35,309 bases of DNA from a virus. Taxonomy: Duplodnaviria; Heunggongvirae; Uroviricota; Caudoviricetes. Every line of letters begins with the position of its first letter. Within the stretch, counting starts at the first letter, position 1. Below the pieces are notes generated by a model. The model worked only from the letters and a program-made list of their open reading frames with translations, was not told where the DNA came from and did no database searches. Below, piece by piece: positions 4,896 to 25,573 of the stretch. The stretch lies in the IMG/VR virus record IMGVR_UViG_2526164613_000023; one strand, given 5' to 3'. Position numbers and translations under genes: made by a program.

Positions 4896-7718
4896 ATGAC
4901 GGCAGAGTACATCAGGGACTGGCAACAACCGCGCCACGCAGTGGGGCGTGAAGGAACGGGGATCCCCGCTCCTGAATCCGCGCTTTCCTCCTGGCTGGAT
5001 GCCTACCGGGCAGAGAACGAACGCCGCCAGGAAATGGCTGATGCGGCGTTTTCCGCCACGCCGCTGGGCAACCTGATTAATAAAAGCCTGGACGCACAGG
5101 AAAAACAGGACAAAACCATCACACTGGCAGGAGACGCCAGAAAACAGGCACGTGGCGCGGTGGATGAAGCCATGGCCTCGCTGCGCCTGCTGCCGTCCTA
5201 TCTGCGCGATCCGCTTATTCGCCACCTCTCCTTCCTGCGCAAAAAACAGGAAGCCGATCGTCAGAAAGGAAAAAACGCCAGGCAGGCAGAACGCTATGCG
5301 CGTGGGACCCTGCGCAAAATATTCGAACGTCTGGAGCGCACCGATCACCGCTGGGTGACACCGGGTTATCGCTCCCTTGCCGGACGCGAACGCCTGGACG
5401 ATTTGCTTTACCTGCCGCAGCTCAACAAACACCAGATACAGACGCTGGCCACCATGACGGCGGCGATGTTCAGCAGCACCTTCGAAAAACTCTGCGATGG
5501 CTTTGGCGCGACCGATGGCGAGCTGACCATGGATGTAACCATGAAGGCGCATCAGATGCTGGCCCGCATGGCGTTACACCTGCATGCCATGCCTCCACAT
5601 TATGACGCACTGACAACAGACAAAGACCGGAGGAACGAACCGGACACGGAGCTGCTGCCGGGTGCAATCCTTCGCCTGACCTGTGCGGAATGGTGGAAAC
5701 GCAAACTGTGGCTGTTACGTTGCGAGTGGCGGGAAGAACAACTCCGCGCCGCCTGTCTGGTTTCCAGAAAAACATCACCCTATCTGAGCCAGGACGCGTT
5801 AAGCGAGTTTCGCGCACAGCGCGAGAAAACACGCGATTTCCTGAAAAGTTTCATGCTGGAAAATGAAGACGGGTTCACGATTGATCTCGAGACGGTGTAT
5901 TACGCGGGAGTAAGTAACCCGGTTCACCGTAAAGCAGAAATGATGGCCACCATGAAGGGGCTGGAACTTCTGGCCGAAGCCCGTGGCGACAAAGCGGTGT
6001 TTCTGACTGTCACCTGCCCGTCAAAATACCACGCCACAACGGAGAACGGTCATCCGAATCCCAAATGGAACGGGGCCACAATGCGCGACTCCAGCGATTA
6101 CCTGGTTAACACGTTTTTTGCGGCGGTCCGCAAAAAACTGAACCGCGACGGCCTGCGCTGGTATGGCATCCGCACGGTGGAGCCTCATCATGACGGCACC
6201 GTGCACTGGCATATGATGGTCTTTGCACATCCGGAAGAAATCGACACCATTGTGTCCCATACCCGCGATATTGCGATTCAGGAAGACCGCCACGAGCTGG
6301 GCAATGATATTACTCCGCGCTTTAAGGTGGAGTATGTCGACGGCTCAAAAGGCACGCCAACCAGCTACATCGCCACCTACATCGGAAAGAACCTGGACAG
6401 CCGCGCCGTGGATGGCATCGACCCGAAAACGGGCAAGCCACGCGTGGACCACGAAACCGGAAAATCAATGGCCGAGAGCGTGGAACGCGCCATCGGCTGG
6501 GCGCGTCTTCACCGCATCCGCCAGTTCCAGTTCCTTGGTATCCCCTCCCGTCAGGTATGGCGTGAACTCCGCCGCCTTGCCAGTCAGATGGCCCGCAACC
6601 CGGAAGGTCCACAACGTCTGGAAAATGACGCAATGGATGCGGTACTCGCTGCCGCTGATGCCGGGTGTTTTGCCACCTACATTGAGAAACAGGGTGGCGT
6701 ACTTGTTCCACGCAAAGACTACCTGATTCGCACAGCCTACGACCTCGCAGATGAGCTGAACGATTACGGCGAACAGAGTGTACAGATTTACGGGATCTGG
6801 TCACCACTCATCGGGGAATCCTCCCGTGTGTGCACGCACCCGGATAACTGGAAGCTGGTAAGACGTAAACCGGAACAGGAAGGTAGCGCCCACGAAAATG
6901 GTTTTGACCTTCAGGGCGGCCCTGCCGCCCCTTGGACTCGTGGCAATAACTGTCCCCGTGTACAAGAAACGGACAACAACGGGACAGAACAGCCGGAAGA
7001 ACGGCCAGCACCGTGGCCGCAGCTTCCTGACGGCGTTGACGTGAATGAATGGATGCGCTCACTGAAACGGCACGAACGCCGGGCGCTGATGCGTTCGCTG
7101 CGTGACAAACAGGCAAAAAACAGCAGTGATGAAATGCAGAACTGGACACAGAGCCGCAAACAGCCACAGCCTTTGCCTGATAACCACGAGTTACTCGCTA
7201 AAGAATGGCGGGAGTCTGCTGAATCTCTCGGCCTGCATATTGGTGAACAGCAGATGCAGCACCTGTTACGGGGCGGCAGTCTGTACGTTGACGGCAGCAT
7301 CATTGCACCGCAGGGATTTGAAATTGTACGCAAACCGGATACCCGCCCGGACAGCCGAATCACGCAGCTCTGGCAACGCCTGAGTCGTAATCACGGCGTA
7401 AGCAGCACGGAGATCCGCCATAACCCGGTCGCCAGCTATCTGGAACAACTAGAGGCATCAGACCCTGAAGCCGCCGCACGCCTGGCATCCACACTTCAGC
7501 AAGACCAGAACACCATGAAAACACCCGTTACCGTACTTTCTGACATGCTGCGCGCCATCCGCGACGCAGAGCACGCACAGAGAATCAGTGAAACAACTGA
7601 ACGCGCCCGCCGCAAAGCAGACCTGCTGCGGGGTGGCCTGAGCAGTGGAAACAAAAAACAGACAAAAACGGGATTCACAAATCCCGTAAATGAGCAAAAA
7701 ACGCGCCGCGATATATGA
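4896..7718 (+). CDS. A: Rolling-circle replication initiator / endonuclease, P2 gpA-like
   Basis: 940-aa ORF; segments TVHWHMMVFAHPEE and YIATYIGKNLDSRAVDG match the P2 A motifs as recalled; long C-terminal extension relative to P2 A (761 aa). Confidence 0.85.
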   Translation: MTAEYIRDWQQPRHAVGREGTGIPAPESALSSWLDAYRAENERRQEMADAAFSATPLGNLINKSLDAQEKQDKTITLAGDARKQARGAVDEAMASLRLLPSYLRDPLIRHLSFLRKKQEADRQKGKNARQAERYARGTLRKIFERLERTDHRWVTPGYRSLAGRERLDDLLYLPQLNKHQIQTLATMTAAMFSSTFEKLCDGFGATDGELTMDVTMKAHQMLARMALHLHAMPPHYDALTTDKDRRNEPDTELLPGAILRLTCAEWWKRKLWLLRCEWREEQLRAACLVSRKTSPYLSQDALSEFRAQREKTRDFLKSFMLENEDGFTIDLETVYYAGVSNPVHRKAEMMATMKGLELLAEARGDKAVFLTVTCPSKYHATTENGHPNPKWNGATMRDSSDYLVNTFFAAVRKKLNRDGLRWYGIRTVEPHHDGTVHWHMMVFAHPEEIDTIVSHTRDIAIQEDRHELGNDITPRFKVEYVDGSKGTPTSYIATYIGKNLDSRAVDGIDPKTGKPRVDHETGKSMAESVERAIGWARLHRIRQFQFLGIPSRQVWRELRRLASQMARNPEGPQRLENDAMDAVLAAADAGCFATYIEKQGGVLVPRKDYLIRTAYDLADELNDYGEQSVQIYGIWSPLIGESSRVCTHPDNWKLVRRKPEQEGSAHENGFDLQGGPAAPWTRGNNCPRVQETDNNGTEQPEERPAPWPQLPDGVDVNEWMRSLKRHERRALMRSLRDKQAKNSSDEMQNWTQSRKQPQPLPDNHELLAKEWRESAESLGLHIGEQQMQHLLRGGSLYVDGSIIAPQGFEIVRKPDTRPDSRITQLWQRLSRNHGVSSTEIRHNPVASYLEQLEASDPEAAARLASTLQQDQNTMKTPVTVLSDMLRAIRDAEHAQRISETTERARRKADLLRGGLSSGNKKQTKTGFTNPVNEQKTRRDI

Positions 7719-7770
7719 AGCGCGCACAAAACAGGCGAAAACGGGATTTAAAAATCCCGTAAACGATTAA
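7652..7770. repeat. Two copies of a ~45-bp direct repeat, each with a 20-bp palindromic hairpin core
   Basis: Copy 1 at about 7652-7697 (core ACGGGATTcacaAATCCCGT) inside the last codons of gene A; copy 2 at about 7726-7770 (core ACGGGATTtaaaAATCCCGT) between A and parM. Confidence 0.7.
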
Positions 7771-7794
7771 TTAATCAACATAAGGAAAAGCTAC

Positions 7795-8754
7795 ATGAAA
7801 ATTTGTATCGACGACGGCTCCACCAACATCAAGCTGGCATGGACTGAGAACGGCGAACGCCGCAACGCCATCAGCCCGAACAGCTTCAAGTCGGAATGGT
7901 CTGCACCGTTCGGTGGCACGCAGCCCGCGAACTACATGCTTGATGGCGTGCGCTATGGTTTTGATCCGGTCAGCGATCGCTTTGTCCAGACGACCGACAC
8001 GCAATACCAGTACAGCGATGTGAATGTAATCGCCATTCACCACGCGCTGGTCAAATCAGGCATCACGCCACAGGAGGTGGATGTGGTTGTCACCCTGCCA
8101 CTGAGCGAGTATTTCGACACAAACGCACAGCCGGATATGACCAACATCAACCGCAAAAAAGCGAACGTCATGCGCCCGGTGGAGTACCAGAACGGTGAGG
8201 CATTCACTATCCGTAACGTGCGGGTTATGCCTGAATCCATTCCGGCAGGCTTTAAGGCACTGGCTGACATGAGTCCGTTTGAATCCCTGCTGATTGTTGA
8301 TTTGGGCGGAACCACGCTGGATGTGGCAAAGGTTCAGGGGCAACTGGCAGGCATCAGCCAGGTATTTTGCGATCCACACGTAGGCGTTTCACTGATGACC
8401 GATGCCGTACTGTCGGTGATGGCCACTAACGGTATGCGTACCAGTCACCACATCGCCAATACCATTATCGAACATCGCCATGATGAAGCCTGGCTGCGCC
8501 AGCACATCCACAATGTCGCGCATTACGACAGCCTGATGGCGGTTATTCGTGAAAAGGAAGAAACACTGAAACAACGCGTGATTCGCGCGCTGGCGGGGTT
8601 TTCGGGGTACGGTCGGGTGATGGTTGTCGGTGGAGGGGCGGAGATTGTGGCTCCGGCGGTACATGACGCTTACGGCCTCAACGCAAACATTCACACAACA
8701 CCGGAGCCACAGTTTGCCCTGGTTAATGGACTCCATGATATGGACAGGGAGTGA
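7795..8754 (+). CDS. parM: Actin-like plasmid segregation ATPase, ParM/StbA family
   Basis: 319-aa ORF; N-terminus MKICIDDGSTNIKLAW…ISPNSFKSEW… and later …YQYSDVNVIAIHHALVKSG… closely track R1 ParM as recalled; AAGGA RBS. Confidence 0.85.
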   Translation: MKICIDDGSTNIKLAWTENGERRNAISPNSFKSEWSAPFGGTQPANYMLDGVRYGFDPVSDRFVQTTDTQYQYSDVNVIAIHHALVKSGITPQEVDVVVTLPLSEYFDTNAQPDMTNINRKKANVMRPVEYQNGEAFTIRNVRVMPESIPAGFKALADMSPFESLLIVDLGGTTLDVAKVQGQLAGISQVFCDPHVGVSLMTDAVLSVMATNGMRTSHHIANTIIEHRHDEAWLRQHIHNVAHYDSLMAVIREKEETLKQRVIRALAGFSGYGRVMVVGGGAEIVAPAVHDAYGLNANIHTTPEPQFALVNGLHDMDRE

Positions 8755-8758
8755 ACCA

Positions 8759-24994: not shown

Positions 24995-25573
24995 ATGGAT
25001 TTCAGAATGAGTGAACAACCACGGACCATAAAAATTTATAATCTGCTGGCCGGAACTAATGAATTTATTGGTGAAGGTGACGCATACATTCCGCCTCATA
25101 CAGGTCTGCCAGCAAACAGTACCGATATTGCACCGCCAGATATTCCGGCTGGCTTCGTGGCTGTTTTCAACAGTAATGAGGCATCGTGGCATCTCGTTGA
25201 AGATCATCGGGGTAAAACGGTTTATGACGTGGCTTCCGGCGACGCGTTATTTATTTCTGAACTCGGTCCGTTACCGGAAAATGTTACCTGGTTGTCGCCG
25301 GATGGAGAGTGTCAGAAGTGGAACGGCACATCCTGGGCGAAAGATGCAGAAGCAGAAAAACTGTTTCGGGTACGGGAGGCAGAAGAAACAAAAAACAGCC
25401 TGATGCAGGTAGCCAGTGAGCATATTGCGCCACTTCAGGATGCCGTAGATTTGGATATTGCGACGGAGGAAGAGGCATCGTTACTGGCTGCATGGAAGAC
25501 ATATCGGGTATTGTTGAATCGTGTTGATACAACAGTAGCAGCGGATGTTGAGTGGCCAGTCGCCCCACAATAA
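24995..25573 (+). CDS. G: Tail fibre assembly chaperone, P2 gpG-like
   Basis: C-terminal …[21 protein letters not shown]…EWPVAPQ matches P2 G …EERARLESWERYSVLVSRVD…EWPEMPQ as recalled. Confidence 0.85.

Follow-up and report, generated by a model that had tools for sequence, protein, structure and literature searches.

Paired palindromic repeats at the gene A-parM junction of a P88-like prophage: a candidate parC-like centromere and operator

The DNA analysed here, a window of 35,309 nucleotides, is a P88-like (Xuanwuvirus) prophage of Escherichia coli O55:H7 DEC5B. Its gene A (4896-7718, + strand) encodes a replication endonuclease of 940 aa (Pfam Phage_GPA) and is followed on the same strand by parM and parR. 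The parM gene (7795-8754, + strand) encodes an actin-like ATPase containing a StbA_N domain (Pfam, 2.8e-82) and the ParM C-terminal domain, and it matches the ParM of plasmid R1 (PDB 1MWK, E=2.7e-91). Downstream of it, parR (8759-9070, + strand) forms the right end of the module and encodes a ribbon-helix-helix adaptor of 103 aa (Pfam Plasmid_stab_B, 4.2e-24), whose profile matches the ParR of pB171 (PDB 2JD3, E=5.8e-13). The N-terminal strand of this ParR reads TRRISFYL and its C-terminal tail NIRALFPE; the ParM-binding tail is conserved in the alignment.

A repeat search of the window detected one family of direct repeats, with two unstranded 42-nt copies at 7652-7693 and 7725-7766. The copies start 73 nt apart and are identical at 36 of 42 positions (86%); the best 42-nt match expected by chance, from 200 shuffles of positions 7200-8200, was 27/42. 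Copy 1 corresponds to codons 919-933, at the end of gene A, and copy 2 lies in the A-parM intergenic region, beginning 7 nt past the A stop codon and ending 29 nt before parM. Each copy carries a palindrome, ACGGGATT-CACA-AATCCCGT at 7668-7687 (proposed ParR site 1) and ACGGGATT-TAAA-AATCCCGT at 7741-7760 (proposed ParR site 2 and operator), the latter ending 35 nt from the parM ATG. The pattern ACGGGATT-N4-AATCCCGT occurs exactly at these two places in the 35.3-kb window, even when two mismatches are allowed, and was never found in 100 dinucleotide-preserving shuffles. The first-pass annotation had described a pair of palindromic repeats of 45 bp, about 74 bp apart, one in the last codons of A and the other upstream of parM; the repeats and the palindromes are real and their placement agrees with the gene coordinates, although the units measure 42 nt and are spaced by 73.

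The core of both palindromes has the form GGG-N10-CCC, with GGG at 7670-7672 and CCC at 7683-7685 in the first, and GGG at 7743-7745 and CCC at 7756-7758 in the second. Among 61 distinct sequences the central GG/CC of both palindromes is invariant. The whole two-site region spans 115 bp and contains two inverted repeats of 18-20 bp, with four half-sites. AA/TT dinucleotides at the site show a periodicity of 10.4-10.5 bp that was reached by none of 500 shuffles, part of this periodicity being a harmonic of the 73-bp duplication. A third, central palindrome with the same geometry (CGCG-N10-CGCG, 7707-7724) was considered and dropped, as it is not kept among E. coli variants.

Comparison with other loci places the repeats inside the parMR module. 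At two of them (L060 and L090) the C-terminus of A has been replaced, and at a third (L072) the A gene shares no DNA homology with that of the window; all three become homologous to the window again at 7653/7654, within the opening bases of repeat 1. The right edge of homology is at 9070, the parR stop, in these three and in 50 loci overall. The par module thus supplies the last 22 codons and the stop codon of gene A, and the true left boundary of this cargo in P2-like phages, which includes those codons, is now marked. Conversely, a sibling prophage (L089) has the A of the window as far as position 7602, followed by other cargo instead of parMR. Occurrence of the repeat in P2-like phages devoid of parMR had been named at first pass, together with a failure of ParR to bind, as what would speak against a role in partition; L089 has no repeat, nor any match to CGGGA-N8-TCCCG even with one mismatch. 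A scan of viral contigs for CGGGATT-N4-AATCCCG returned 120 stretches, 77 of which adjoin parM; 40 of these 77 are paired, 72-73 bp apart. The rest are 40 unrelated single matches without a second site and three at contig ends, so that none of the 120 stretches holds a repeat pair without parM. The repeats are therefore inherited with parM-parR, as the left end of the module. The repeat region is present in 1304 of 5426 complete E. coli genomes (about a quarter), including O157:H7 EDL933 and UTI89, and 1442 of its 1444 places in E. coli are chromosomal.

The design is also maintained across genera. P2-like prophages of Plesiomonas and Hafnia, whose ParM is 62-63% identical to that of the window, carry GGG-N10-CCC twice, 72-73 bp apart. 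Relative to the parM ATG the two motifs lie at -125/-52 in the window, -131/-59 in Plesiomonas L091, -128/-55 in Hafnia L092 and -124/-51 in Hafnia L117, that is, with spacings of 73, 72, 73 and 73. Elsewhere in ten loci counted, the motif appears 0-4 times per 3-35 kb. The two-site design and its distance to parM are kept where identity of the flanking sequence falls to about 50%. In Plesiomonas and in Hafnia L092 the hairpins themselves are lost (z-scores -0.02 to -2.45), with the GGG and CCC triplets still in place. Scans with other queries added few loci: a genome-contig scan with the ParM alignment gave only 18, mostly of plasmid type, and next to none came from viral contigs scanned with the ParM of Plesiomonas and of Hafnia.

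The ParR proteins vary along with the sites. All loci with the GGG-N10-CCC type of site encode a ParR that begins TRR(I/V)SFYL, and this includes the ParR alleles of the E. coli group, which are just 51-93% identical overall yet share the same start. Relatives in Serratia and Enterobacter have NRKISFYL, and there the upstream design differs, with inverted GAAATAGAAAAAT arms. Judged from these alignments, the predicted DNA-reading strand of ParR, TRR(I/V)SFYL or NRKISFYL, tracks the type of site.

We conclude that a type II ParMRC system borne by the phage probably has the two repeats as its cis-acting site, a parC-like centromere and operator. A centromere or ParR operator was also the leading idea of the first-pass annotation, and it is favoured by the inheritance of the repeats with parMR, their absence from L089, the conserved core and geometry, and the matching ParR strand. 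Each repeat can be read as an inverted pair of GGGA/TCCC boxes, with centres 13 bp apart and an A/T-rich spacer between them, and each pair of boxes would bind ribbon-helix-helix ParR dimers via the N-terminal strand TRRISFYL; we infer both this binding and its stoichiometry. The two sites sit in DNA with phased A-tracts, and since the 73 bp between them correspond to seven helical turns, both face the same side of the helix. With its conserved C-terminal tail, ParR bound at the two sites would catch ParM filaments by their ends. Polymerisation of ParM could then move the circular phage DNA, or separate its copies, once it has been excised or while it replicates.

Site 2 might also serve in regulation. 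A weak promoter-like candidate can be drawn on the + strand at 7747-7775, with a -35-like hexamer TTTAAA (7747-7752) inside palindrome 2, a spacer of 17 nt and a -10-like ATTAAT (7770-7775). No + strand promoter was found at the stricter threshold of a consensus scan, the TTTAAA-17-ATTAAT candidate lying below it. Hafnia and Plesiomonas share the ATTAAT motif, and L117 and L092 have a promoter-like candidate at the same position. Since the best -35-like hexamer ahead of parM falls within site 2, ParR would be expected to repress its own operon as well.

Other readings of the palindromes have to be weighed. One is that they act as RNA, as + strand hairpins in the A-parM transcript or the parM leader that affect processing, stability or parM translation. 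Both hairpins are stable on this strand (-10.7 and -11.2 kcal/mol), and because no terminator lies between A and parM, read-through transcripts would include them both. The common variants of site 2 (G1, T18) retain G-U pairs on the + strand, but the commonest variant of site 1, present in 18 of the 61 distinct sequences, creates a C-A mismatch; in the same set, no double change is found at any of the 16 stem pairs. Plesiomonas and Hafnia L092, moreover, keep the GGG/CCC positions without the hairpin. A search of Rfam gave no family match, the best hit (E=0.56) falling far under the gathering score. A role as RNA thus seems very unlikely.

The palindromes could instead bind a protein other than ParR: the A protein at an origin or nick site, another phage regulator or a host factor. 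The origin of P2 is located inside gene A, and site 1 lies inside the A coding sequence, as such a reading would have it. The site is present, however, in L072, beside an A gene without DNA homology, and L089, where A is that of the window as far as 7602, lacks it; this refutes the origin function that had been suggested at first pass. The sites also follow parMR and co-vary with the N-terminal strand of ParR, so a binder other than ParR is, in our opinion, hard to credit.

Termination of transcription can be envisaged on either strand. A terminator pair for the A transcript, as put forward in the first-pass annotation, is unsupported, as neither hairpin is followed by a T-run on the + strand. 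On the minus strand the hairpins might act as intrinsic terminators, shielding A from antisense transcription out of the variable cargo region: the 8-bp stems fold with -10.8 and -11.6 kcal/mol and are followed by a T-rich tail (TTTTTGTCTGTTTTTT at site 1, TTTTCGCC at site 2), and a consensus scan flagged site 1 as terminator-like. No minus-strand gene adjoins the hairpins, since parM and parR (7795-9070) are on the + strand, and the nearest one (9302-10108) has a terminator-like site of its own at 9137-9118. Hairpin and T-tail are not kept in Plesiomonas and Hafnia L092, which have just GGG-N10-CCC. The 61 distinct sequences hold no compensatory change in the 16 stem pairs, and their single-sided changes favour opposite strands at the two sites. 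We regard minus-strand termination as very improbable indeed. Finally, the duplication might be a scar without function, left where recombination attached the par cassette to A. This is extremely improbable, for although repeat 1 sits exactly on the recombination breakpoint, the GG/CC core is invariant and both the 72-73-bp spacing and the distance to parM are kept across genera despite flanks of about 50% identity.

We also considered, and rejected, that repeat 1 is kept for the peptide (KKQT.TGFTNPVNEQKTRRDI) that it encodes at the C-terminus of A. The frame of repeat 1 is kept in three contexts, as the tail of A, as the tail of a 155-aa ORF and as a stand-alone 31-aa ORF with a Shine-Dalgarno sequence (L072). 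In Hafnia L117, however, the A stop falls within the loop of palindrome 1, and no conserved peptide is seen in Plesiomonas or Hafnia L092, which indicates that it is the DNA that is kept rather than the peptide.

The centromere and operator reading raises the question of what the system would do for its carrier. The need for a centromere is not obvious because the element is an integrating prophage, almost always found in the chromosome. Four half-sites, in addition, may be too few for a helical ParR scaffold of the plasmid type. More tentatively, P2-like integrating prophages might carry a fully functional minimal ParMRC, with two palindromes, each taking a ParR tetramer, seven helical turns apart and fused to the end of the replication gene. 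Such a system could position or separate excised genomes replicating by the rolling-circle mode, or allow a transient plasmid-like carrier state, rather than serve plasmid maintenance; we see this as possible but doubtful. In the literature we found no description of parMR function in P2-like or P88-like phages, or of this two-palindrome site.

The textbook example of an actin-like machine for DNA segregation is ParMRC of plasmid R1, in which ten direct iterons lead to a helical scaffold of ParR. R1 parC is 159 bp long, with two blocks of five 11-bp direct iterons placed around the promoter, upstream of parM (PMC2241845). Like R1 parC and pB171 par1, the phage site is directly upstream of parM-parR, bipartite and A/T-rich, with GGG/CCC triplet cores and phased A-tracts, and the cognate proteins are homologous as well, ParM to that of R1 and ParR to that of pB171. 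By analogy with R1 parC, a dual role as operator and centromere would be expected (PMC2241845). In contrast to R1 parC, the phage region is more compact, at 115 bp, and has two inverted-repeat sites within a 2 x 42-nt direct repeat and no tandem iterons of 10-11 bp; an array of 11-bp iterons was seen at an R1-type control locus (L088). Further, the best promoter candidate of the phage overlaps site 2, whereas the R1 promoter lies between the blocks; site 1 is within the upstream coding sequence, the replicon is not a plasmid but an integrating P2-like phage, and the phage ParR has 103 aa compared with 116-147 aa in four plasmid ParRs. The likeness to R1 parC, as far as analogy allows, is functional and not architectural. 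If ParR binds, the phage site would offer a minimal natural centromere for testing the number of ParR dimers required to cap a ParM filament.

Relatives on plasmids that share the site were looked for and discarded: no plasmid ParM exceeds about 52% identity, and an iteron-type parC region is present at all four of the plasmid loci examined. Seven plasmid records match ParR, and the three examined proved to be two P88-like prophages or phage genomes and one unannotated record. In geometry, the phage site resembles the operators of Arc and Mnt of phage P22, which consist of short inverted boxes about one helical turn apart, with the beta-sheet of one dimer on each box and a dimer of dimers on each palindrome. 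The likeness is in geometry only, as Arc and Mnt are plain repressors without a role in partition.

In prophage CGP3 of Corynebacterium glutamicum, the AlpA/AlpC/alpS system ties circular phage DNA to filaments and is required for efficient phage replication (PMC4446434). AlpC and AlpA are not family-level relatives of the ParM and ParR of the R1 family, the alpS motif (TTAAnnG) is unrelated and the host is Gram-positive. Nevertheless, by analogy of function, CGP3 AlpAC is the best precedent for an actin-type system in an integrated prophage. Binding by ParR would make the P88-like site a tractable E. coli model for asking why temperate phages have cytoskeletal partition systems, and if the minimal ParMRC is fully functional, CGP3 AlpAC would have a counterpart in a Gram-negative host and the two palindromes would be the smallest type II centromere in nature.

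A repeat search of the window returned two 42-nt copies, at 7652-7693 and 7725-7766, which are 73 bp apart and identical at 36 of 42 positions, whereas the best 42-nt match in shuffles of the region did not exceed 27/42. Each copy carries the palindrome ACGGGATT-N4-AATCCCGT (site 1, 7668-7687; site 2, 7741-7760), found only at these two sites in 35.3 kb even at two mismatches, where chance predicts none. The duplicated palindrome-bearing repeat described in the first-pass annotation is therefore real. A third palindrome of the same geometry, CGCG-N10-CGCG (7707-7724), stands halfway between the two and overlaps the stop codon of A; the E. coli variants do not conserve it.

The repeats lie in a P2-like prophage that is P88-like (Xuanwuvirus, Peduoviridae). 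Over the stretch tested, 7200-8100, it is 100% identical to the E. coli O55:H7 DEC5B chromosome; matches to phage P88 and its relatives stand at 96-97%. Repeat 1 occupies codons 919-933 of the replication endonuclease gene A (4896-7718, plus strand; 940 aa, Pfam Phage_GPA), and repeat 2 starts 7 nt past its stop codon. The plus strand continues with parM (7795-8754; Pfam StbA_N / ParM) and parR (8759-9070; 103 aa, Pfam Plasmid_stab_B), and the minus strand carries a DUF3800 cargo gene (9302-10108) and the portal gene (10718-11764). Within the A protein the GPA domain spans residues 179-503; Pfam assigns nothing to the long C-terminal extension, and the last 272 residues (~669-940; window 6900-7715) match only the 14 P88-like records in the phage collection. 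The interval between parR and the portal gene (9071-10717), like its equivalent in related loci, is a variable cargo slot with terminator-like sites on either side, 9118-9137 (-) and 9282-9301 (+). It holds DUF3800 in the window and, in related loci, DUF4760, a ClpX zinc-finger protein with an Ead/Ea22-like protein, HicAB or a KAP NTPase. Elsewhere, Rfam RF02111 (IS009 RNA) has a full-length match at 25338-25536 (+), scoring 191 bits against a gathering score of 117.

P2-like prophages of Plesiomonas, Hafnia, Serratia and Enterobacter encode ParM relatives 54-63% identical to that of the window, and in every case the gene lies between A and the portal gene. In one Plesiomonas locus (L091) and two Hafnia loci (L092 and L117) the upstream DNA has strongly diverged, yet each retains GGG-N10-CCC twice: at -131 and -59 from the parM ATG in Plesiomonas (spacing 72), at -128 and -55 in L092 and at -124 and -51 in L117 (spacing 73 in both), compared with -125 and -52 (spacing 73) in the window. 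Outside these sites the motif occurs 0-4 times per 3-35 kb in the ten loci counted. In the four-way alignment, invariant columns cluster on GGGA, CCC, CGGG and CCC, plus a downstream TTAAT, and extended 8-bp stems are confined to the E. coli group. The window hairpins fold at -10.7 to -11.6 kcal/mol, while folding in Plesiomonas and Hafnia L092 is like that of shuffled sequence or modestly better (z -0.02 to -2.45). Among 61 distinct E. coli-type sequences the central GG/CC pairs are invariant, none of the 16 stem pairs shows compensatory change, and the frequent one-sided stem changes are wobble-tolerable on opposite strands at site 1 and site 2. Judged by this pattern, the conserved element appears to be a protein-type site and not a hairpin. 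A plus-strand RNA element is possible in the E. coli group only, but it lacks covariation support, and no Rfam family matches the repeats. The hairpins might also be minus-strand terminators, a consensus that site 1 fits on that strand; however, no minus-strand gene adjoins them, because parM and parR (7795-9070) lie on the plus strand, the nearest such gene (9302-10108) has its own terminator-like site (9137-9118), and hairpin plus tail are not conserved.

We compared the window with 80 viral contigs encoding a ParM 93-98% identical to that of the window. In the contig L060 and the chromosomal prophage L090 other sequence replaces the C-terminal part of A, and in the contig L072 the entire A gene lacks DNA homology to the window, though it still encodes a GPA protein. 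In all three, homology restarts with the first bases of repeat 1, at 7653 or 7654. For L060 and L072 it stops at 9070, the parR stop codon, a right-hand boundary seen in 50 loci. These ends define the mobile unit as 7653-9070, the left end of which provides the final 22 codons of A together with its stop codon. In L072 this end (2830-2924, corresponding to window 7653-7718) is a stand-alone 31-aa ORF (MKRINANTKAKKQTETGFTNPVNEQKTRRDI) with a good Shine-Dalgarno sequence, covering repeat 1 beside the unrelated A; the same frame is the tail of A in the window and of a 155-aa ORF in L060 and L090. The peptide is probably incidental, since it is not conserved in Hafnia or Plesiomonas.

Conversely, a prophage of E. 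coli cS51a (L089) shares A as far as window position 7602 and has three unrelated genes in place of parMR; neither repeat nor palindrome is present and its A protein ends differently. Scanned for CGGGATT-N4-AATCCCG, 2.9 million viral contigs yielded at least 120 stretches: at least 77 adjoin parM, at least 40 of these as pairs 72-73 bp apart; at least 40 are singles in unrelated sequence, without a second site; and at least three lie at contig ends, adjoining a GPA gene. No pair without parM is among the matches listed. The repeat in P2-like phages lacking parMR, named in the first-pass annotation as evidence against a ParR site, was thus not encountered, and the origin-associated structure it had also considered is removed by the same presence and absence, the site standing beside an unrelated A in L072 and missing beside the shared A in L089. 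A site for A or another protein is contradicted by this pattern too, and a recombination scar by the geometry conserved across genera. Of 5426 complete E. coli genomes, 1304 carry the repeat region, and 1442 of its 1444 places are chromosomal.

The ParR profile matches pB171 ParR (PDB 2JD3; E=5.8e-13) and ParM matches R1 ParM (PDB 1MWK; E=2.7e-91). In the E. coli group ParM alleles are 93-98% identical and ParR alleles 51-93%, the latter keeping the N-terminal strand (T)RRISFYLKPA and the C-terminal tail NI(R/Q)xxFPE. They diverge in the protein's second half, with homology breakpoints at ~8904-8958 in many loci, which looks like allelic replacement of the middle or linker region. Ribbon-helix-helix proteins read the major groove with the N-terminal strand. 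Plesiomonas and Hafnia ParR (33-74% identical to window ParR) have TRRISFYL or TRRVSFYL and GGG-N10-CCC upstream; in the Serratia and Enterobacter relatives the strand is NRKISFYL and the upstream design differs, with long inverted, GAAATAGAAAAAT-like arms 26-28 nt apart. The type of site therefore seems to follow the ParR strand. The putative parC of the latter prophages (L094, L100, L095 and L115) lies ~120-30 nt upstream of parM, with 14-20-nt inverted arms (GGGAAC.A.ATAGAAAAAT), 26-28 nt between them, and then a GCCGTTTAAACGGC-like palindrome.

We consider it probable that the repeats are a ParR-bound centromere or operator, the leading reading of the first-pass annotation. Inheritance with parMR, geometry conserved across genera and covariation of site with ParR strand are indirect but convergent support. 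From geometry and homology we infer a mechanism, ParR binding included, in which two ParR dimers would sit on the GGGA and TCCC boxes of each palindrome, centres 13 bp apart. The 73 bp between palindromes would equal seven helical turns and so place both on the same DNA face; as in R1, the ends of ParM filaments would meet the ParR tails that the complex displays. A-tracts are helically phased (AA/TT periodicity 10.4-10.5 bp, reached by 0 of 500 shuffles), a signal to which the duplication itself contributes a harmonic. Upstream of parM the best promoter-like match is weak: palindrome 2 contains its -35 (TTTAAA, 7747-7752), and its -10 (ATTAAT, 7770-7775) falls in the conserved TTAAT. Candidates occupy the same position in both Hafnia loci, and a stricter consensus scan found nothing on the plus strand. 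The same scoring as for the weak match placed the R1 promoter between the iteron blocks, as published (PMC2241845). Transcripts of the early operon probably also read through into parM, since there is no terminator between A and parM.

This compact site is common in E. coli and lends itself to experiments; it also poses the question of what use an integrating phage would have for a partition machine. The 34,461-bp record NZ_CP148288.1, entered as a circular 'plasmid' of E. coli Z1323PEC0009, is a complete P88-like phage genome with integrase, cox, A, parM, parR, structural genes and a Hok/Gef family gene. The record may reflect a phage that is episomal or excised, consistent with a role for parMRC; alternatively, induction may have left it as a by-product in the assembly.

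The 159 bp of R1 parC hold ten 11-bp direct iterons, a block of five on each side of the promoter (PMC2241845), a layout reproduced exactly in the R1-type locus L088. The phage site shares with it position, bipartite layout, A/T richness with CCC/GGG cores and homologous proteins, but it has no such iteron array, so we treat it as a variant apart from the R1 design. In the literature we found no description of the repeat-pair site, or of parMR function in P2-like phages. The nearest functional precedent in a prophage is AlpA/AlpC/alpS of Corynebacterium CGP3: the repeats bound by the adaptor lie upstream of the operon that encodes it, and efficient replication of the phage DNA requires the system (PMC4446434).
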